The position numbers were made by a program, and so were the translations under genes. From contig CP025011.1 in NCBI GenBank assembly GCA_002952755.1, forward strand, positions 720,001 through 752,000: DNA of 32,000 nucleotides, in the 5' to 3' direction. Shown here in pieces: positions 864-26,568 of the stretch. Below the pieces are notes generated by a model, which ran no database searches, was not told the DNA's origin, and saw only the letters and a list, made by a program, of their open reading frames with translations. Origin of the DNA: Candidatus Saccharimonadota bacterium (GTDB lineage Bacteria; Patescibacteriota; Saccharimonadia; Saccharimonadales; UBA4665). The first letter of the stretch is position 1; the number at the start of each line of letters is the position of its first letter.

Positions 864-1928
864 CTAGTAGATGAGTCCGGCAGAGCGGGATAAAACGGCG
901 CCGAGTAGGCCAATTGCCACGAGCACTATGTCGAGCAACTTATGCTTCATGATGAAGGCTTCGCCGCGAACCAGGGTTTTGTGCCAGAGTAATCCATGCC
1001 GCAAGAAGAAGATGGCGAGGCTGACGGTAGCAATTGTGCTGACAGCAAACATACTCCAAGGGGCATTGGCGCCCGAGAGTAGCTGGACGCGGGAAACATC
1101 CTTGCTGGCGACAGTTTTTGGCATACTATTAGCTGCCCCAGGCGTAGTCGTTGTGGTGTTGGTTTCGGGAGCTTTTTTAGCAGGGTTGTCGCTGCTAGCT
1201 GGCGGCGCGGCAGGGTTTGCGGCCGCACTGGGTGCGCTCTGAGCGGGAGCTGGTTGCGTGGCAGGCGTTACTGTTGGTTGATGCGCGGGTGGTGGGGCGT
1301 TAGAAGTCGCAGCTGCAACGCTGGGTTGCGGGCTGCCATATTCAGCAACGACAATTGTCTCCGGCCCGGTACCTTGGTAGTCAGGAGAATTAGCTACGCC
1401 AAAGCCGACATCTGTATACGTTGTATTGAGAATGTTGGCACGGTGCTCGGCGCTATTCATCCAAGCGGTAACCGTGGCATCGCTACTATCGAATCCGTAA
1501 GCTAGGTTTTCGCCTGCAGTCTGATAACTATAGCCAGCGGCGGTAAAGAAAGTCCAGGGCGTGGCGCCGTCGGGCGTGTTGTGCGCCCAGTAATCTCTTG
1601 CGACCATATCATTCGCTTTCGCCTGGGCTGCGCTGGCGAGCTGGTTATTCAGCGCGAGGCTGCCAAGACCATTGCTAGACCGCTGCGCGTTGGTAGTAGT
1701 AGCCAATTCAGCAATGCTCATATCAGTGGCGTAGCCGAGAACGCTTTTATGTATATTGCCCAAAAAGCTATTACAAAAAAGTCCGACGGCCACGATGGCA
1801 ATAATTGGAATATAGGGCCAATAGGTCTTCATATAGTGGTCGTTGCGCTGATGATGCTGACCGCTGCGCCGCTTGTTGTGCGGCGACTTGGTAGAGACTC
1901 GTTTTTTTGATTTTGCTGCAAGAGCCAT
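864..1928 (-). CDS. Membrane-anchored CAP/SCP/PR-1 (YkwD-like) domain protein with a P/A/T-rich linker
   Basis: CAP-domain motifs YWAHNTPDG, GENLAYGF and AWMNSAEHRANIL. Basic N-terminus plus a TM helix, a long Pro/Ala/Thr-rich region, and two C-terminal hydrophobic helices. Confidence 0.8.
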   Translation of the reverse strand: MALAAKSKKRVSTKSPHNKRRSGQHHQRNDHYMKTYWPYIPIIAIVAVGLFCNSFLGNIHKSVLGYATDMSIAELATTTNAQRSSNGLGSLALNNQLASAAQAKANDMVARDYWAHNTPDGATPWTFFTAAGYSYQTAGENLAYGFDSSDATVTAWMNSAEHRANILNTTYTDVGFGVANSPDYQGTGPETIVVAEYGSPQPSVAAATSNAPPPAHQPTVTPATQPAPAQSAPSAAANPAAPPASSDNPAKKAPETNTTTTTPGAANSMPKTVASKDVSRVQLLSGANAPWSMFAVSTIATVSLAIFFLRHGLLWHKTLVRGEAFIMKHKLLDIVLVAIGLLGAVLSRSAGLIY

Positions 1929-2547: not shown

Positions 2548-4149
2548 ATGAGCCAAGATGCCCGCCACGACGAAGAGATGGCGACCCAACGCCGGGCGCG
2601 TATTTTGGGTTTAAACTATGTCGATACCTCGGCTATGACTAATAAGCAGCTATTTAATGATTTGCTGCCTGCGTCTGAGTTGTACCAACTGCGAGTAATT
2701 CCGCTATCTGCCGATAAAAGCAACATACTATTTGGTATCACCAACACTACCTCACAACAAGTGGTGCGCCAACTGGAACAGCGCTTCAGCGATAGGCGTT
2801 TGGCGTTCGCGATTATCTCTGATGCTGGCTACCGTGACTACATGCATCTGTATGATCCGCCGAAACAGGTAGTTTACCAGGATATCAATATTGTTAATTC
2901 GGATGACGCACAGCTATTGCAAGTAATATCTTCTACGCTGGCCCAAGTGCGTGCCGACGACATGCTGGCATACCTCGTGCAACAGGCATATAAGCTCAAA
3001 GCGTCGGACATTCACTTAGAGAACCAAGAGCAGAATATCCGCGTGCGTTTACGTGTGGATGGTGTACTGCACACTATAGCTACCATTGAACGCGGTAAAT
3101 ACCATCAATTGATGTCGGCTATTGCTAGTGCTGCAAACGTGTCTACCGATTCGTCCGATGCCCAAACCGGCCATATCAATAACCACTACCGATTGGCTAC
3201 GGGCGAAGACGTTACAGTGAATTTGCGCGTCGAAACGGTCCCTACGGCATATGGCCAGGACGTTGTCATGCGGCTATTTAATCTCGAGCTCGAATATCTC
3301 AATCTGGACAAACTGGGCCTTAGCAAGCGCGAACGGGATGTGGTGGATGACGTCATCCGTCATCCAACCGGTATGGTGCTCATTGTCGGTCCAACGGGAT
3401 CGGGCAAAACAACCACGCTCTATTCCCTCATTAATACGCTTAATAGTGATGAGCGCAAAGTTATTACCCTGGAGGATCCAATTGAGTATTTCATCCACGG
3501 CGTGGTACAAATTCCCGTCCACGGTGACAACGATGCTTCTGGTTTTGCTGATAAATTACGCGCCGTGCTGCGTCTCGACCCTGATATCGTGATGGTAGGT
3601 GAGATTCGTGATCAAGACACTGCGCGTACGGCTTTGCAATCCGCACTCACCGGCCATTTGGTGCTCAGCACCTTTCACGCTTCATCTGCCGCGGCCGCTC
3701 TGACGCGCATGCTCGACTACATTGGCATGAATCCGCTCTTTGCTTCTGCTATGCATCTGGTGATGGCGCAGCGCCTGGTTCGCAAGCTGGACGACGCGAC
3801 CAAGCAGGCGTATCAACCGGATGCCGGCCTGAAAGCGCAGTTGCAGCAAGTGATAAACACGCTGCCCCAAGGCATCGAGCGGCCGAATCTCGATACGGTT
3901 ACGCTCTACAGACCAGGTAGCTCTCCGGAAGTTCCTTTTGGCTACCAGGGTCAGATCGCGATCCGCGAACAGCTTATGATGACCCAGGGCATTCAACAAT
4001 TACTGCGTCTACCTCCCAATCAAATTACAACCGACATGCTCCAAAAAAAGGCACAAGAAGACGGTATGCTCACTATGGTGCAGGACGGCCTTCTGAAAGC
4101 CATAGAAGGTCTTACTTCTTTGGAAGAAGTGTACCGCGTCGTTAGTTAA
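2548..4149 (+). CDS. pilB: Type IV pilus / type II secretion assembly ATPase (PilB/GspE family)
   Basis: Walker A GPTGSGKTTTLYS, Asp box VITLEDPIEY, Walker B DPDIVMVGEIRD, His box TGHLVLSTFHA. N-terminal T2SSE_N-like region (RARILGLNYVD). Confidence 0.9.
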   Translation: MSQDARHDEEMATQRRARILGLNYVDTSAMTNKQLFNDLLPASELYQLRVIPLSADKSNILFGITNTTSQQVVRQLEQRFSDRRLAFAIISDAGYRDYMHLYDPPKQVVYQDINIVNSDDAQLLQVISSTLAQVRADDMLAYLVQQAYKLKASDIHLENQEQNIRVRLRVDGVLHTIATIERGKYHQLMSAIASAANVSTDSSDAQTGHINNHYRLATGEDVTVNLRVETVPTAYGQDVVMRLFNLELEYLNLDKLGLSKRERDVVDDVIRHPTGMVLIVGPTGSGKTTTLYSLINTLNSDERKVITLEDPIEYFIHGVVQIPVHGDNDASGFADKLRAVLRLDPDIVMVGEIRDQDTARTALQSALTGHLVLSTFHASSAAAALTRMLDYIGMNPLFASAMHLVMAQRLVRKLDDATKQAYQPDAGLKAQLQQVINTLPQGIERPNLDTVTLYRPGSSPEVPFGYQGQIAIREQLMMTQGIQQLLRLPPNQITTDMLQKKAQEDGMLTMVQDGLLKAIEGLTSLEEVYRVVS

Positions 4150-4191
4150 ATCGCGTTCCAGTTCATCTGCCGGGGATTAACGTCAATCCAA

Positions 4192-4293
4192 GACATCTAC
4201 CGCACACTCCATATGGAGCGTTACATGCAGGTCGGCCAAAGGTCGGTCTGGTTGCACTACGCTTGACTCTATCTGGAGTGTGCGGTAGATGTC
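4192..4293 (+). repeat. Hairpin-apex element, family A, copy 2 (candidate structured 3'-UTR RNA)
   Basis: Arms 4192-4218 and 4267-4293: 27 positions with 25 Watson-Crick pairs, 1 G-U wobble and 1 mismatch; the outer 20 bp are perfect. Core 4219-4266 is CGTTACATGCAGGTCGGCCAAAGGTCGGTCTGGTTGCACTACGCTTGA. Confidence 0.8.
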
Positions 4294-4372
4294 GAAACTA
4301 TACTATTCCCTTATAGCAACAGATGTGTTATGCTTGTCCTAAAGCCAAAAATAGTGTAAGGTGTATTAATCT

Positions 4373-4891
4373 ATGCAATCTGTTATTCAAAAAGTTGAAG
4401 CGAAGTATAAGAAGTCGGCTGTCGTAAATGTCAAAAGCGGCGACACGGTAAAAGTGCACCAGAAAATCCGTGAAGGCAATAAAGAGCGTGTGCAGATTTT
4501 CCAGGGGATGGTTATTCGTTGCGACCGTAAGGATAGCCACACCAGCCGCATTACGGTACGTCGTATCGCTAGTGGTATTGGTGTAGAAAAGAGCTTTCTG
4601 TTGCACAGCCCGCTCGTCCTCAAAGTAGAGGTTACCAAGCGCAGCAAGGTGCGCCGCAACTATCTGACATACATGCGCAACCGTACTGGCAAATCTGCCC
4701 GCTTGACCGGCGTCGAGTTTGACCGCATGGCGGTTAACGCCATTGTTGATACCAAGGCCGAGGAAGAGGAAGTAAAACTCGCTGAGGAAAAAGCCGCTGC
4801 CGCTGAGGCTGAAGCTGCCAAGAAAGCTGCGGAAGAAGCTGTCAATGAGGCGAAAGTGCAAGAGGCACTGGCCAAGCACGACGAATCCTAA
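4373..4891 (+). CDS. rplS: 50S ribosomal protein L19 with an Ala/Glu/Lys-rich C-terminal extension
   Basis: L19 signature GDTVKVHQKIREGNKERVQIFQGMVI...RRIASGIGVEK. SD AAGGTG upstream. About 55 extra C-terminal residues (KAEEEEVKLAEEKAAAAEAEAAKKAAEE...). Confidence 0.95.
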   Translation: MQSVIQKVEAKYKKSAVVNVKSGDTVKVHQKIREGNKERVQIFQGMVIRCDRKDSHTSRITVRRIASGIGVEKSFLLHSPLVLKVEVTKRSKVRRNYLTYMRNRTGKSARLTGVEFDRMAVNAIVDTKAEEEEVKLAEEKAAAAEAEAAKKAAEEAVNEAKVQEALAKHDES

Positions 4892-4915
4892 GCTTCAGTT
4901 TATACAGATTATGAG

Positions 4916-4945
4916 GACCCGCCCACAAGCGGGTCTTTTACTTTT
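4916..4945 (+). terminator. Rho-independent terminator of rplS
   Basis: GACCCGC (4916-4922) pairs with GCGGGTC (4929-4935) around a 6-nt loop, followed by TTTTACTTTT. Confidence 0.75.
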
Positions 4946-5082
4946 CTCTCAGGTCGTATCATCGCCTCATTTATCCTAAATCTCCTCCATATCTCCGTCC
5001 CCGCAAATAGCGATCTTTATACGTCACTTTTTGTCCCGCAAAAAGTAACCAAAAACTCCCCAAGGCAAACGTAAAACACTAC

Positions 5083-5179
5083 TGGAAAATACCCCGCACA
5101 GCATCTTCGCTGCGGAACTCGCCCTTGATTGGGCTCAAACAGTCCTCGCTCGTGCAGATGCTGTGCGGGGTATTTTCCA
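5083..5179 (-). repeat. Hairpin-apex element, family B, copy 1
   Basis: 24-bp perfect arms (5083-5106 pair with 5156-5179). The 49-nt core reverse-complemented reads GCACGAGC-GAGGACTGTTTGAGCCC-AATCAA-GGGCGAGTTCCGCAG-CGA and matches the core at 5413-5469. Confidence 0.8.
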
Positions 5180-5393
5180 ATCGGTTTTACTCCAGGCCCC
5201 GAACCTCGTCGGGAATGGAGACGAGAAGGTAAGGTCTTTCAGTATATACGAAGAAGAGATACTTAAAATCTGGAGGTCCTTATTAAGTGCAAAATAGGAG
5301 CAGTCCTGGATGCAGCTACATACGTATTTACCAACCACCTTTCAATCACAGGATCGAATATCCGACTAGTTCGGCCGTAATGGAAAACCGATT
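5179..5393. other. Long imperfect hairpin bridging the two family B elements (candidate ncRNA domain)
   Basis: AATCGGTTTT (5179-5188) pairs with AAAACCGATT (5384-5393). GGCC[CC]GAAC (5195-5204) pairs with GTTCGGCC (5369-5376). Local hairpin CTCGTC/GACGAG at 5205-5225. No credible ORF. Confidence 0.5.
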
Positions 5394-5491
5394 AGCTACA
5401 GCAGCCAAATTAGCGGATAAAGCCGAGGACTGTTTAAGCCCTTGTAAAGGGCGAGTTCCGCAGGCTCGTTAATTTGGCTGCTGTAGCTAGT
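5391..5491 (+). repeat. Hairpin-apex element, family B, copy 2
   Basis: Arms 5393-5412 and 5470-5489 form 20 perfect bp, plus one G-U and one A-T pair outside them. Core 5413-5469 is GCGGATAAAGCC-GAGGACTGTTTAAGCCC-TTGTAAA-GGGCGAGTTCCGCAG-GCTCGT. Confidence 0.8.
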
Positions 5492-5619
5492 AGGCTTTTT
5501 CATTCCTAGGCCGAGAGGTTTTTCGGTTCCTTTTTTGTGGAAAAAAAGAACATTACAAGGATTGCAAATCGCGGGTGGGGATTTACTGAGGAATTATTGG
5601 AATACCTCACGGAGCTGCT

Positions 5620-6213
5620 ATGGAGAAAATACAGGCAGCCTGTGCTAGACTGAGCAATATGATCGTGGGGATGGATGAAGTAGGGAGAGGGTGTTGGGCT
5701 GGTCCGCTAGTAGCCGGGGCGGTGGTGCTTGGCGCCCCAATTGCCGGGCTCAAAGACTCCAAGAAACTCACCAAGTTACGCCGCGAGAAGCTGGACGTAG
5801 AAATCCGGTTGCAGGCGCTTGGTTTTGGCCTTGGCTGGGTGGGGCCGGCAGAGCTGGACAAGGTAGGACTCACCGAAGCGGTACGCTTGGCCATGGCTCG
5901 GGCTTTAGCAGATGTAGCCGTCCCGTATGAACGAATTATTATAGACGGCAATTATAATTTTTTTGCAGACAACCCCAAGAGTTCTTGCTTGGTAGGTGCT
6001 GATAATAGCGTACCAGAGGTGAGTGCGGCAAGTATTATCGCCAAAGTGGCGCGCGATCGCTACATGGCTGAAATCGCATCCCTGTTTCCCGGTTATGGCT
6101 TTGAAAAACATGTTGGCTACGGCACTGCAGCCCATAACGCCGCACTCAATGTGCTCGGTATCTGCGGCCAGCACCGCCGTAGTTTTAAGCCAATTCAAGC
6201 CTATGCAGTATGA
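5620..6213 (+). CDS. rnhB: Ribonuclease HII
   Basis: Catalytic motifs VGMDEVGRGCWAGPLVAGAVV, DSKKLT and SAASIIAKVARD. SD GGAG upstream. Confidence 0.9.
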   Translation: MEKIQAACARLSNMIVGMDEVGRGCWAGPLVAGAVVLGAPIAGLKDSKKLTKLRREKLDVEIRLQALGFGLGWVGPAELDKVGLTEAVRLAMARALADVAVPYERIIIDGNYNFFADNPKSSCLVGADNSVPEVSAASIIAKVARDRYMAEIASLFPGYGFEKHVGYGTAAHNAALNVLGICGQHRRSFKPIQAYAV

Positions 6214-6551: not shown

Positions 6552-9117
6552 AGATGTAGAACGCTTGGACGCTGGGGAGATCGCGCTCCAGCCAGGCGAT
6601 ACGCGTTTCCAACTCCTCGACACCCAAGGTAATATTGTGGGCCAAAGCTATCTGATCAGTCTTTGGCGCAAAGAAAGTCTGGTACTCTTCTAATAACTGG
6701 CGTGTATTAAAGGCGCTGGCCGCATAGCGCGGTAGATAGTCGTACGAGGAATCTTTGCTGAAGGTAGCCTCCAGCCATGGCCACTCCGACTGCATCCACT
6801 GCCAGGCCAGCATACGAGAGTAACGATTACGAAGCAAACTGACGAGCCAATGGTCGACATCCTGCTGGCGGACTTTGGTGCTATCTTGCAAGCGGCCGAG
6901 TAAAATAGTGGTCTCGTCTTCGCGTTGGGTAGCGGTGAGCGCAGTTAAAATGTCTTGCTTAAGATCAACGTTTTGCGTCGTTTCAATCAGATTGATCAAG
7001 TATTCGAAAGCTCCCTCGTGGTGATTACGCACCGCGCAACCGAAGACCACATCGCGTATTTCGGCAGGAACCGCTTGCGCATCTTTCTTATAGGCTTCAA
7101 AGAGGGTTAGAGCCTTAGCAGTGACGTCGGGATGCTCGGCATACACACCGAGGCCGATAATCGTGCCGCGTAGTTTTATATCTTGGCTGGATTCGTCTAT
7201 TTTTTGCTCCCATCCTAAGCGCTCATACTGTTTTTGGATGAGGGTGCGTATGGCTTGCTTTATTGGCGCTTCGAGTGACGTATCGCTGTCGATAAAACGT
7301 CTGCCTTCGCCCAAGATAACGCCCATCATGCCCCAAACGGGTTCGCTATCTTCGTCATTGTAGTGTGCGAGCAGTTTCAATGTGGCGTCATACGATTGCA
7401 GTCCAGCCCGGGAGAGCATCGAACTGTCATTGAGGAGCATTAGCCGCTCGCTTACTGCCAGCTGCTTATGCTGGGCGAGTTTCGCCAAAGCTTCTGCGTG
7501 GGCTGGTTCAGTGTAATGGACGATGTAGTGGCCAATCGCGCCCCGGTTAAAACGCACGGGCTCGGACGAAGCAAGCATGAAGGTCTTTTTTGCCTTGGTA
7601 AAGAGGTCGGGGACGGCGGGGAGATCTGCGAGCAAAGGAACCGGCCATAGGCGGCCTGTGTCGGCTTTGGACATATCGAGCAGGAAATGGTGTTGGGTAA
7701 CGCTAACCCGTCTGTCTTTTTGGGTTGCAGCTACAACCGGGAAGCCAGAACGCTCCAGCCAAGGTTCCATGAACCCAACGACATTCTTACCGCTGGCCGC
7801 ACTAAGTGCCTCCCATAGGTCCTTAGCGGTCGTATTGCCGTACGAATGGGTGGCAAAGTAGGTTTGCAGGCCTTTCCGGAAATCTTCGGTACCGAGGTAA
7901 CGAATGAGTGTATTGAGCAGCCTTCCGCCCTTCGCATAGACGATTGAAGGGTCGAATAAGCTGCTGATCTCATCAGGGTGATGAACAGCCGTATGCACTG
8001 CCTGCACTCCTGCAATGCTGTCGCGGCGCAGTGCTTGTAACCCTTCATCGATCACATAGCTGTCCCAAATATGCCACTCCGGGAAAAGCGCATCCATTGC
8101 CACGTAAGCCATAATATTGGCAAAACTTTCGTTGAGCCAGATTTCATCCCACCACTTCATCGTTACCAGATCGCCGAACCATTGGTGTGAAGCCTCATGT
8201 GCGACAACCTCGGCAATTACCTCGCGGGTGCTCTGTGCAGAGGTGTCGGGATCGGCAATAAGTACGGACTCGCGGTAGGTAAGTAGCCCCCAGTTTTCCA
8301 TGCCTCCAGCCGAAAAGTCGGGGATGGCAACATTGTCGCATTTGGCCAGCGGATATGGAGTATGGTAATAGTCTGCAAAGAACTCGATAGAACGCTTGGA
8401 AACGTCCAGCGCAAAGTCCAGCGCTTCAGGCCGATGAGCTTTGGTCGCCCACACGCGCACGTTAACGCCGCTATTCGTTTTCGTCTCACGCGACTGCAGC
8501 TCGCCGATCACAAAGCCCAGCAAGTAGGTCGACATTTTGGGGGTCGTTTCAAAGGTAGTTACCATCTTGCCGTCTTTTTCGCTCTGGTTGAGTGCGGGCA
8601 TATTGCTTAAGACTACTTCATCTTTAGGGCCAGTGAGCGTTAGTGTGAAGGTCGCTTTGGCTTCCGGTTCGTCTATGCAAGGGAAGGCGCGGCGGGCATA
8701 ATGACTTTCGAATTGGGTCGATAGCAAGCGATATGTTTGCTCGCCTACTCTATAGTCTGAAGAGTAAATGCCGTTCATACCATCGCTGATGGTGGCCTCA
8801 AACTCCATGACAACCGTATATTGGCCCGCATGCAACAAGGTATCGCTATGCAGACGAACTTCTTCTAAGGTCTGTTGATGGTTGATGCGACTAATAGTAA
8901 TTTGTTGCTCGCCCTTTTTATCATGCTTGGTTACGCTTGCGCTGATTACTTTTACACCGTGCTGATGAAACGTCAGGCGTTGGCTGGGGCGCCCCTTCCT
9001 GAGCCCGGTAATGGTGACGTTGCCACGCACTGTACGGGTTTCTTTATCAGGGTCAAGGAATAATTGGTAGGATGTGGGCTGAAAGCCCTCGAATAGGCGT
9101 CTGACATTTTTACTCAT
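6538..9117 (-). CDS. pepN: M1-family aminopeptidase N
   Basis: GGMENWG (GAMEN-type exopeptidase motif) and HEASHQWFGDLVTMKWWDEIWLNESFA (HEXXH-X18-E). 859 aa. The 3' end overlaps yraN by 14 nt (convergent genes). Confidence 0.9.
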   Translation of the reverse strand: MSKNVRRLFEGFQPTSYQLFLDPDKETRTVRGNVTITGLRKGRPSQRLTFHQHGVKVISASVTKHDKKGEQQITISRINHQQTLEEVRLHSDTLLHAGQYTVVMEFEATISDGMNGIYSSDYRVGEQTYRLLSTQFESHYARRAFPCIDEPEAKATFTLTLTGPKDEVVLSNMPALNQSEKDGKMVTTFETTPKMSTYLLGFVIGELQSRETKTNSGVNVRVWATKAHRPEALDFALDVSKRSIEFFADYYHTPYPLAKCDNVAIPDFSAGGMENWGLLTYRESVLIADPDTSAQSTREVIAEVVAHEASHQWFGDLVTMKWWDEIWLNESFANIMAYVAMDALFPEWHIWDSYVIDEGLQALRRDSIAGVQAVHTAVHHPDEISSLFDPSIVYAKGGRLLNTLIRYLGTEDFRKGLQTYFATHSYGNTTAKDLWEALSAASGKNVVGFMEPWLERSGFPVVAATQKDRRVSVTQHHFLLDMSKADTGRLWPVPLLADLPAVPDLFTKAKKTFMLASSEPVRFNRGAIGHYIVHYTEPAHAEALAKLAQHKQLAVSERLMLLNDSSMLSRAGLQSYDATLKLLAHYNDEDSEPVWGMMGVILGEGRRFIDSDTSLEAPIKQAIRTLIQKQYERLGWEQKIDESSQDIKLRGTIIGLGVYAEHPDVTAKALTLFEAYKKDAQAVPAEIRDVVFGCAVRNHHEGAFEYLINLIETTQNVDLKQDILTALTATQREDETTILLGRLQDSTKVRQQDVDHWLVSLLRNRYSRMLAWQWMQSEWPWLEATFSKDSSYDYLPRYAASAFNTRQLLEEYQTFFAPKTDQIALAHNITLGVEELETRIAWLERDLPSVQAFYISTNL

Positions 9118-13103: not shown

Positions 13104-13204
13104 GGCACTGGCATGCCCATGCAAGTAGAGCGTTTCACGCAGGCCGACTAAAGTCGGTCTGGTTGCACTACGCCTGACTCTACTTACAGGAGCATATGGG
13201 TGCC
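13104..13204 (+). repeat. Hairpin-apex element, family A, copy 3 (eroded arms)
   Basis: Core 13131-13177 is CGTTTCACGCAGGCCGACTAAAGTCGGTCTGGTTGCACTACGCCTGA. The flanking arms give about 18 pairs, interrupted by one mismatch and two 8-nt bulges. Confidence 0.7.
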
Positions 13205-26484: not shown

Positions 26485-26568
26485 GCGCGAGTGGTGAAAT
26501 GGTAGACACGCTAGTTTTAGGAGCTAGTGCCGTAAGGCGTGGAGGTTCAAGTCCTCTCTCGCGCACCA
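26485..26568 (+). tRNA. tRNA-Leu (anticodon UAG), class II, CCA encoded
   Basis: Hand-folded. Acceptor GCGCGAG/CTCGCGC. D arm GTG/CAC with GG in the loop. Anticodon stem CTAGT/GCTAG with loop TT-TAG-GA. Long variable arm TGCCGTAAGGCGT. T arm GGAGG-TTCAAGT-CCTCT. Discriminator A followed by CCA. Confidence 0.95.

Follow-up and report, generated by a model that had tools for sequence, protein, structure and literature searches.

A 32,000-nucleotide (nt) stretch of Candidatus Saccharimonadota contig CP025011.1 (positions 720,001 to 752,000; here "the window") carries, between the genes rplS and rnhB, a block of long hairpins at window positions 5083-5491. An initial annotation, made from the sequence alone, had read the block as two inverted "family B" hairpin apices flanking a third long hairpin. 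Comparison with related sequences makes it highly probable that the block consists of the middle portions of two diverged copies of a dispersed repeat that lie inverted and head to head; the apex of this repeat recurs across phyla.

Two inverted copies of one repeat unit

The 17-nt block GAGGACTGTTT(G/A)AGCCC occurs exactly twice in the window, at 5131-5147 on the minus strand and at 5425-5441 on the plus strand, against a chance expectation of 0.14 when three or fewer mismatches are allowed. The 15-nt block GGGCGAGTTCCGCAG is the same in both copies, as had been noted, and the identity in fact extends to 17 nt. A covariance model of the family, run on the 32-kb window, found these two copies only, at 57.7 bits (B-left) and 52.2 bits (B-right), the next match scoring 10.6 bits; the presence of one family B core on each strand was thus borne out. 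The unrelated perfect arms ascribed to each core are real, but their extents had to be revised: those of B-left, 5084-5106 and 5156-5178, form 23 of 23 Watson-Crick pairs, and those of B-right, 5394-5415 and 5467-5488, form 21 plus one G·U. Each 115-nt hairpin has a folding energy of -55 to -65 kcal/mol (z -8.0 to -10.2), equalled in none of 200 dinucleotide shuffles, and in each the strand that reads GAGGAC is more stable than its complement by 4-6 kcal/mol. The tip loops are AATCAA (B-left) and TTGTAAA (B-right), neither of which is a GNA mini-hairpin. Runs of four to five T follow both hairpins on both strands, 5-8 nt past the perfect arms, and a terminator scan flagged 5149-5169 and 5509-5528.

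The unit size first proposed, about 100 nt, is an underestimate: alignment with relatives gives ~270 nt. Both window units align end to end with five Saccharimonadia copies (L030, L054, L085 and two in L024), and these seven make up the unit set used below. Taxon labels throughout are those of the records; L024 is labelled Verrucomicrobiia, bears a Saccharimonadia-type unit and may be mis-binned. Within a unit a small GC hairpin (hp1) is followed by an outer stem, a basal helix, a variable helix of 18-23 bp, a collar, the core and the collar again, and then by the return strands, a T-run, a further hairpin (hp3) and a 3' module. The consensus of the basal helix is AAACnGATT(A)...(T)AGTAnnGTTT, with a conserved G·A and U·G; that of hp3 is GGTTCCTTTTTG-loop-CAAAAAGGAA, and that of the 3' module is TTGAYT-17 nt-TGATGT/TGATAC. 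The features of the region are as follows.

4915-4950, plus strand: rplS intrinsic terminator, a short GC hairpin with a T-run (terminator scan and sequence), outside the repeat and the left limit of the inserted block
4952-5225, minus strand: B-left unit, a whole repeat copy (module-by-module alignment with B-right and the five Saccharimonadia copies)
4952-5021, minus strand: B-left 3' module, GAGATT-17 nt-TGATAC, matching TTGAYT-17 nt-TGATGT of relatives (spacing read from the sequences)
5022-5050, minus strand: B-left hp3, an A/T hairpin GGTTACTTTTTG-CGGGA-CAAAAAGTGACG, homologous to GGTTCCTTTTTGCCACCAAAAAGGAAT of related genomes
5051-5083, minus strand: B-left basal helix, 3' half, AGTAGTGTTTTACG, then TTTGCCTTGGGGAGTTTTT with a T-run
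5084-5106, minus strand: B-left variable helix, 3' arm, pairing with 5156-5178
5107-5155, minus strand: B-left collar and apical core, the core being GACTGTTTGAGCCC-AATCAA-GGGCGAGTTC at 5115-5144 (57.7 bits)
5156-5178, minus strand: B-left variable helix, 5' arm, GGAAAATACCCCGCACAGCATCT, 23/23 Watson-Crick with 5084-5106
5179-5188, minus strand: B-left basal helix, 5' half, AAAACCGATT; the plus strand reads AATCGGTTTT, one side of the supposed third hairpin
5205-5225, minus strand: B-left hp1, a small 5' hairpin, CTCGTC-TCCATTCC-GACGAG
5226-5350, no strand: centre between the head-to-head units, 125 nt, A/T-rich, without a homolog, a family match of an open reading frame (ORF) or a sigma-70 consensus
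5351-5619, plus strand: B-right unit, a whole repeat copy ending at the rnhB start codon (alignments)
5351-5363, plus strand: B-right hp1, GGAT-CGAAT-ATCC
5384-5393, plus strand: B-right basal helix, 5' half, AAAACCGATT, the other side of the supposed third hairpin
5394-5415, plus strand: B-right variable helix, 5' arm, AGCTACAGCAGCCAAATTAGCG, 21 Watson-Crick pairs and one G·U
5416-5466, plus strand: B-right collar and apical core, the core being GACTGTTTAAGCCC-TTGTAAA-GGGCGAGTTC at 5428-5458 (52.2 bits)
5467-5488, plus strand: B-right variable helix, 3' arm, pairing with 5394-5415
5489-5523, plus strand: B-right basal helix, 3' half, and outer stem, AGTAGGCTTTTT, the outer stem with T-run GGCCGAGAGGTTTTT
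5524-5552, plus strand: B-right hp3, CGGTTCCTTTTTT-GTGG-AAAAAAAGAACA
5553-5619, plus strand: B-right 3' module, leading into the rnhB ribosome-binding site (ATG at 5620)

RNAalifold predicts 62 pairs for the seven units, and 35 of these keep pairing through double-sided compensatory changes. The variable helix, which corresponds to the "private arms" of the initial annotation, comprises 127 Watson-Crick, six G·U, no A·C and two other pairs over the seven units; its identity between units is 35-67%, versus 90-96% for the flanking conserved modules (L030 family). To judge from these alignments, the helix appears constrained to pairing and free in sequence. A cassette-like swap of the helix, suspected from L030 versus L054, was rejected: the L085 helix is 50% identical to that of L030, with compensatory changes, and the residual identity of L085 and the L024 pair (50-67%, compensated) indicates ordinary drift under a pairing-only constraint. 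A metagenome scan with the L030-type collar gave five copies, four of them duplicates. In the related Saccharimonadia the unit is co-oriented with both neighbours, ends with GGCTTTT(T) and begins 3-8 nt past the upstream stop codon, which leaves no room there for a promoter of its own.

The supposed third hairpin, 5179-5393, is a by-product of the inverted arrangement and has no independent structure. Its fold barely betters that of its shuffles (plus strand, z -2.26; minus strand, z -1.71), and the minimum free energy (MFE) structure has an ensemble frequency of 0.0003. The closing stem pairs AATCGGTTTT (5179-5188) with AAAACCGATT (5384-5393); this decamer forms the base of every B unit on its 5' side and is conserved, and the stem exists because the inversion of the units makes their homologous 5' parts complementary. 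Both the third long hairpin and the large composite non-coding RNA of three contiguous helices that was built on it thereby lose their footing.

The rplS-rnhB spacer was compared with that of the nearest relatives, as the initial annotation had suggested. The RnhB proteins of these relatives are 76-77% identical to that of the window, and the gene order PilB-(malic enzyme)-rplS-rnhB-yraN-M1 peptidase-NusA is retained. Their spacers either are 45 nt long with a plain terminator (L081, L082) or contain an unrelated minus-strand gene (L078, L080); no similarity to window 4892-5619 was found in them, and the family model finds nothing in those loci. The block is therefore an insertion. Among the three readings originally offered, that of a nested or non-autonomous element comes closest, the block consisting of two inverted, diverged copies that are absent from the nearest relatives' spacer. 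Such a close inverted pair was seen only in the window, and elsewhere copies are single or directly oriented. In three of the relatives (L078, L080, L081) a minus-strand malic-enzyme gene, sometimes with further genes, lies between the PilB-type ATPase gene and rplS; the counterpart interval in the window, 4150-4372, is just 223 nt long and holds the A2 hairpin, which belongs to a second family, A.

The gap extends from the rplS stop codon at 4891 to the rnhB ATG at 5620 and is, as described, a 728-nt interval without genes: the small ORFs listed in it overlap the hairpins, and none has a Pfam family match. The window genes are otherwise housekeeping genes (NUDIX, SpoU, PilB-type ATPase, L19, RNase HII, YraN, M1 peptidase, NusA, Clp ATPase, RadA, PBP1, TyrRS, RecG and RsmD). 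As for the original reading of two divergent small RNAs, no sigma-70-like promoter was found in the 125-nt centre or for either window unit. A replication origin or terminus at the inverted pair was ruled out by the GC skew, which is positive throughout the window. Since the insertion puts two strong hairpins between rplS and rnhB, transcription of rnhB has probably been rewired in this lineage.

The apical core across bacteria

The core had been taken to be private to this genome, but it is kept across phyla. An exact-pattern scan for GACTGTTTNAGCCC-N4-10-GGGCGAGTTC in one genome per species (185,579 species) gave at least 77 matches at no fewer than 75 loci in at least 38 assemblies, where about 0.1 would be expected by chance (our own arithmetic); since it matched exactly, the scan will have undersampled both how broad and how variable the family is. 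By record title the hosts span Actinomycetota (Eggerthellaceae, Coriobacteriaceae), Patescibacteria (Parcubacteria, Falkowbacteria, Saccharibacteria), Omnitrophota, Myxococcota and Pseudomonadota, the last with Comamonadaceae, Aquabacterium, Azospira and Rhodocyclaceae, cultured isolates among them, and with Sedimenticola and Cellvibrionales. The covariance-model search that had been proposed, run on the window and on loci from other genomes, also found further copies outside the window, and family B copies are widespread elsewhere.

At every matched locus the core forms the tip of a long hairpin, the arms of which are lineage-specific and follow the local base composition. The core is usually multicopy: some hosts carry 8-12 copies or more, counting sampled loci alone, and these are 88-99% identical at unrelated loci. 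Copies lie mostly between tandem or convergent genes and seldom between divergent ones. In Omnitrophota the core is carried by a palindromic repeat of ~235 nt that ends in a 19-nt perfect terminal inverted repeat and is present in at least 12 copies of 88-99% identity. The Eggerthellaceae have a conserved ~100-nt hairpin enclosed by outer arms that are private, perfect and up to ~56 bp long. A multi-helix block of ~260 nt is found in Betaproteobacteria, with 93-97% identity across genera in differing gene contexts.

The idea that the arms are inverted duplications of their flanks, made by template switching or fold-back, fails for the window, in which conserved basal modules enclose the variable helix. 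It may hold for the Eggerthellaceae outer arms, which are perfect over up to ~56 bp and in one case (L007) reach 8 nt into the end of the upstream ORF. Lineage-specific arms that lack the core were not found in a sample that is biased to core-bearing loci. At one locus shared by two Eggerthellaceae species (L045 ~3300-3560 and L072 ~3100-3360), the outer arms differ yet are complementary through paired changes, which implies that private arms have been maintained over speciation and are not merely newly made. Two other Eggerthellaceae loci (L043 ~1600-1700, minus strand, and L074 ~3955-4040) carry an insert of ~85 nt directly after the core GAGTTC; it starts TGGACYGAGCGCCCGGAAAATGAGCCAGTGGCTCATTTTC, runs to ...GGGAAAGCTTTAGCTTTCCC and contains two perfect hairpins of its own. 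The insert resembles another small element, nested in the core at a fixed position.

The minimal core can be written GAC-UGUUUGA-G[helix]C-GA-GUUC. In 51 distinct copies GACUGU(U)UGAG...(C)GAGUUC is invariant or nearly so, a conservation that was in part imposed by the search pattern itself. Among the copies that came from relaxed or model searches (8 to 12), the letters of the internal loop are fixed and the helix is changed, with the variants GGCC/GGCC, GCUC/GAGC, GCCU/AGGC and a 2-bp GC-GAA-GC tip. Double changes affect five of the six pairs of the apical helix, and the observed covariation score was reached by 0 of 500 shuffles. Tip loops are unconstrained save for the triloops, 18 of 22 of which are GNA, many in the form GCGAAGC or CCGAAGG. 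These patterns suggest that an apical module of ~30-40 nt is the invariant heart of a hairpin-repeat superfamily over at least five phyla.

Two variants of the core were recognized. Variant B'' reads GAGCAC...GUUGCGC, a compensatory change of G:C to C:G; this speaks for GGA being paired with UCC and one U bulging out, a pairing that RNAalifold predicts as well. Variant B' reads UUGUUUGAGCG...CGAGUUC and lies within the same Betaproteobacterial scaffold. The Betaproteobacterial elements with B' or B'' cores (L021 1860-2030; L017 5470-5640, minus strand; L051 4168-4229; L019 3296-3356, minus strand) have in common an outer scaffold, GCCGAG(G/C)AGCG...GAGCA(C/G)CGCAGGGC, and a hairpin. The string GAG...CGCAG repeats in them at nested levels, as though hairpins had entered hairpins, and many then carry a conserved CTTTCTTTGG...TTTCTTTGGCGAAGCAAAGAAAG module.

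No known RNA family accounts for these sequences. With Rfam 15 at the gathering threshold, the sole match in the window is a tRNA; at E <= 10, positions 4850-5650 gave chance sub-threshold matches only, the best with 22.5 bits against a gathering score of 54; and nothing was found on the core in 18 loci of other phyla or in L017. A known family such as 6S, a match to which the initial annotation had named as a refutation, a ribozyme or a known small RNA was therefore rejected at gathering and permissive thresholds alike. A phage or plasmid origin was set aside as well: the 2.9 million viral contigs of IMG/VR contain no core match, and the 72,556 plasmids of PLSDB, like 5,426 complete E. coli genomes, contain chance partial matches only. 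The core string, searched on either strand and as DNA or RNA, had no match in full-text literature, and keyword searches returned general papers on palindromic repeats and on template switching only.

The folding strand and its orientation

The folding strand had originally been assigned from a G-U pair between GGAC and GUUC. That argument is weak, since variant B'' supports Watson-Crick pairing of GGA with UCC and a bulged U, but the strand chosen is backed by the mismatches in the arms, which are distributed over the lineages as follows.

Eggerthellaceae: G·U 15, A·C 10
Parcubacteria-type: G·U 33, A·C 12
Omnitrophota: G·U 15, A·C 4
Saccharibacteria-type: G·U 18, A·C 0
Proteobacteria/Myxococcota: G·U 5, A·C 0

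The total is 86 G·U versus 26 A·C, in the same direction in all five lineages; because copies within a genome are not independent, these counts overstate significance, and we place weight on the consistent direction and not on p-values. The mismatches favour folding of the GAGGAC strand. The asymmetry fits RNA and single-stranded DNA equally, because G·T is the best-tolerated mismatch in DNA.

In 26 of 28 Parcubacteria-type and in all ten Omnitrophota copies, the strand that folds is the C-rich one and runs antisense to nearby genes, so that an mRNA there would carry the weaker complement. This bias speaks against an RNA function that the lineages would share and that mRNA would carry; it favours a DNA process specific to one strand, antisense transcription, or selection that acts on the strong orientation in operons and disfavours it. 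The Parcubacteria hairpin begins 3-5 nt past the stop codon of the opposite-sense reading; loci L005, L011, L029, L022 and L070 are examples of the bias. No U-run follows the hairpin in the Parcubacteria or Eggerthellaceae copies. For the Saccharimonadia and the window, the flanking T-runs make a bidirectional terminator-like role plausible.

Proposed workings, known systems and alternatives

In this Saccharimonadales lineage the pair was inserted into the rplS-rnhB spacer, and we propose that folding is required of the GAGGAC-reading strand. The apical internal loop, with its tandem G·A and 5-nt bulge resembling a kink-turn (K-turn), would be the docking site for a conserved trans-acting factor, which would copy or maintain the element via a single-stranded intermediate of the GAGGAC strand; single-stranded DNA, in the manner of REP/RAYT or IS200/IS605, is judged slightly likelier than RNA, the frequent GNA tip triloops, with GCGAAGC and CCGAAGG mini-hairpins that are far more stable as DNA (PMC13037366), being a hint in that direction. 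After insertion behind a gene, the hairpin and its A- and T-runs may be tolerated or used as a two-way, terminator-like insulator. The mechanism (trans-acting factor, single-stranded intermediate, terminator role) is offered tentatively, and as a best explanation taken whole, identity and mechanism together, the proposal seems to us evenly balanced between right and wrong. A broader suggestion, made with similar reserve, is that the apical module is an undescribed recognition motif of a cross-phylum "hairpin-apex" superfamily, read on one strand by a dedicated protein or enzyme, and that family A is a second module of the class. The candidate readers would then be a new single-strand transposase, a primase-like factor or a bacterial K-turn-binding protein.

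Several observations weigh against this proposal, in addition to the non-independence of copies noted above. The window proteins include no transposase, HUH nuclease or reverse transcriptase and no other partner candidate, and no neighbouring protein recurs within 2.5 kb of 79 copies (75 loci); a conserved neighbour gene or linked transposase was accordingly dropped as a candidate. No shared terminal inverted repeats were found in the window and Saccharimonadia units (hp1 was set against the 3' module, and the arms differ by copy), nor any direct repeat, as a target-site duplication would leave, at the unit boundaries of Saccharimonadia or Omnitrophota copies. Only two lineages show a strong bias in how copies are oriented to genes, whereas Eggerthellaceae, Proteobacteria and Saccharibacteria are mixed; in the two biased ones, Parcubacteria and Omnitrophota, the folding strand lies on the presumed leading-strand template, opposite to the IS200/IS605 rule, on the assumption that local GC skew reports the direction of replication. 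The co-orientation, stop-adjacent start and T-run end of the Saccharimonadia unit fit a role at the RNA level equally well. The conserved modules look purified and not decaying, which points to a host-level function rather than to pure selfishness. Finally, B-right has an A in place of the family G in UGUUUGA, so that the tandem G·A position becomes AA/GA.

Interspersed palindromic repeats, such as repetitive extragenic palindromic (REP) sequences, MITEs (miniature inverted-repeat transposable elements) and Correia elements, do not as a rule extend beyond one species or genus. In their workings we rate REP/REPIN, the single-strand hairpin elements of the IS200/IS605 type and transcribed MITEs (Correia) as closest, and the B repeat as a member of no named family. 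It was not assigned to one because no 5' GTAG, shared terminal inverted repeats, target-site duplication or linked transposase was seen; conversely, cross-phylum conservation of a structured tip is a feature of none of the three.

REP/REPIN/BIME sequences (RAYT being the TnpA-REP tyrosine HUH protein) are likewise short, structured, palindromic, multicopy and extragenic; they lie behind genes, fold on one strand, can form inverted doublets, are presumed to move as single-stranded DNA, and double as stabilisers or terminators at mRNA 3' ends. They differ in being 20-40 nt long and species-specific with a conserved 5' GTAG, whereas the B repeats are 100-290 nt long with a conserved tip in five phyla. 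No GTAG precedes the hairpin (the Saccharimonadia have AGTAG/TAGTA on the 3' side only, and it is missing in other lineages), and no RAYT gene was seen in the window or within 2.5 kb of the 79 copies. REP doublets are tens of nucleotides apart; the members of the window doublet are ~300 nt apart, core to core, and each folds alone. With IS200/IS605 elements and their derivatives without an ORF (PATEs) the B repeats share the lack of terminal inverted repeats and target duplication, strand-specific imperfect hairpins with fixed irregularities, an orientation bias and presence in many phyla. IS200/IS605 elements, however, have two subterminal hairpins on the same strand, with cleavage beside conserved tetra- or pentanucleotides, whereas the B unit has a single dominant central hairpin: hp1, the long hairpin and hp3 are on one strand, hp1 and hp3 are mutually unrelated, and no conserved flanking tetranucleotide was identified. 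No TnpA was found, and the orientation bias, if linked to replication, is of opposite sign.

Correia elements of Neisseria and ERIC sequences resemble the B repeats as interspersed palindromes of 100-150 nt that are co-transcribed, their long RNA hairpins affecting termination, processing and stability. Their terminal inverted repeats are conserved, they duplicate a TA target and their spread is at genus level, in contrast to the sequence-free arms and cross-phylum apex found here. Integron attC sites are comparable in being single-strand hairpins with a conserved base, a stem constrained to pairing only and fixed extrahelical irregularities, recognized by structure on one strand, but their variable tip, R and L boxes (RYYYAAC...GTTRRRY), gene cassettes and integrase have no counterpart at B units; the B base reads AAAACCGATT...AGTAGGCTTT, without GTTRRRY, and there is no integrase among the window proteins. 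In layout the apex follows the K-turn order of a helix (GGAC/GUUC), a bulge, tandem G·A and A·G pairs (5'-GA/5'-GA) and a second helix, its letters invariant in 51 copies. The bulge has 5 nt (UGUUU) as against 3, B-right has AA/GA, and tandem G·A forms in DNA too; no L7Ae-family partner is known in these bacteria. An intrinsic terminator has its U-tract directly after a stable hairpin; here the T-runs of the window begin 5-8 nt past the arms, the Saccharimonadia relatives end in GGCTTTT(T), and the U-tract is missing in Parcubacteria and Eggerthellaceae copies. Other resemblances noted by eye (group II intron domain V, the hammerhead core, boxA/boxB, parS, SRP RNA, the 23S H65 region and CRISPR I-E repeats) were discarded as partial agreements of letters with unmatched structure.

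Alternatively, the units might be functional structured RNAs, either derived from 3' untranslated regions or independent small RNAs, with the hairpin as scaffold or terminator, a K-turn-like apex that binds a protein, and copies that are paralogues under host selection, their mobility incidental. The compensatory covariation (35 of 62 pairs), the mismatch ratio of 18:0 in Saccharibacteria-type copies and 86:26 overall, and a core with tandem GA/GA and the signature of a C-stem and an NC-stem all speak for such RNAs, as do the stop-adjacent, co-oriented Saccharimonadia unit with its GGCTTTT(T) end and modules that stay 90-96% identical while the variable helix has drifted to near randomness. 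We nevertheless consider this account, the strongest of the alternatives, rather unlikely. The folding strand runs antisense to every gene nearby in 36 of the 38 copies that are of Parcubacteria type or from Omnitrophota, which lie in spacers of 100-130 nt; the hairpin lacks a U-run in Parcubacteria and Eggerthellaceae; the tips are GNA triloops or arbitrary tetraloops, neither GNRA nor UNCG; the bulge is 5 nt long where the canonical one is 3 nt; no sigma-70 promoter was detected for the window units; and K-turn binders of the L7Ae type are not known to be general in bacteria. A single RNA of ~410 nt with three contiguous helices, the composite of the initial annotation, is very improbable. 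The three segments do abut, and a 10-nt inverted repeat closes the middle one, but the middle fold is poor (z -2.3/-1.7; MFE ensemble frequency 0.0003), the stem that closes it is formed by the homologous bases of the two inverted units, the arrangement is seen at no other locus, and with cores on opposite strands a single transcript would carry one of them as its weaker-folding complement.

The repeat could instead act at the DNA level only, its extruded single-strand hairpin being recognized by an enzyme of replication or repair, for example a primase or primosome, in the way of single-strand initiation signals. The GCGAAGC and CCGAAGG mini-hairpins that are frequent at the tips are far more stable in DNA than in RNA and form part of single-strand priming signals, the same motifs being reported in the phage G4 origin and RSF1010 ssiA (PMC13037366). 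The strand-specific fold and the strong orientation bias in two phyla would agree with such a role, and the window copies, on opposite strands with their 5' ends facing, would resemble the ssiA/ssiB pair of the RSF1010 oriV. This reading is nonetheless improbable: the uniformly positive GC skew leaves neither origin nor terminus in the window, the close inverted pair is unique to it, its tips AATCAA and TTGTAAA are not GNA mini-hairpins, and the motif is absent from the 72,556 plasmids and 2.9 million viral contigs, where such signals are best known. It is less credible still that the private arms are spacer-like guides and the hairpin the precursor of a small RNA that targets phage or host. 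A perfect private duplex of 22-23 bp between conserved modules invites the comparison, but in a test for CRISPR-like guides the variable arms had no match in viral contigs or, at three or fewer mismatches, elsewhere in the window; paralogous arms keep 50-67% identity with compensation, which indicates gradual drift and not acquisition; and the same helix in Parcubacteria is a clearly diverging homologous stem.

A constant structured tip of ~30 nt amid arms rebuilt to the local composition, in no fewer than five phyla, implies a recognition partner that is both specific and portable; among these phyla are the Patescibacteria, whose reduced genomes have little non-coding DNA. The partner was not named by the Rfam, plasmid, phage and E. 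coli collections or by the full-text string searches. Its identification would explain the spread of tiny hairpin elements among distant bacteria, and could also give a compact, sequence-defined, protein-binding hairpin.

The second family of the window, A, has the module GAGCGTT(T/A)CA..AGGCCGAC-UAAA-GUCGGUCUGGUUGCACUACGC..GACUC at 165-269, 4192-4293 and 13122-13194, each copy lying 5-45 nt downstream of a stop codon. Its private arms are 29 bp long and perfect in one copy, 27 bp long with two mismatches in another and decayed in the third; a diverged copy was found in another Saccharimonadia contig (L083 ~7930-8060). The L19 protein encoded at 4373-4891 has 172 aa, with a C-terminal extension of ~60 aa rich in Glu, Ala and Lys past the Pfam L19 domain (residues 4-111), and that of the relatives likewise has 172-175 aa. 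A tRNA-Leu (anticodon TAG) at 26485-26568 is the window's sole Rfam or ARAGORN match. On the practical side, these hairpins break short-read assemblies: among the Logan assemblies of this organism, L001 and L002 begin at window position 5511, after the long hairpin of B-right, and L087 ends at ~4269, inside the A2 hairpin, and several contigs of metagenome-assembled genomes from other phyla start or finish at the core.

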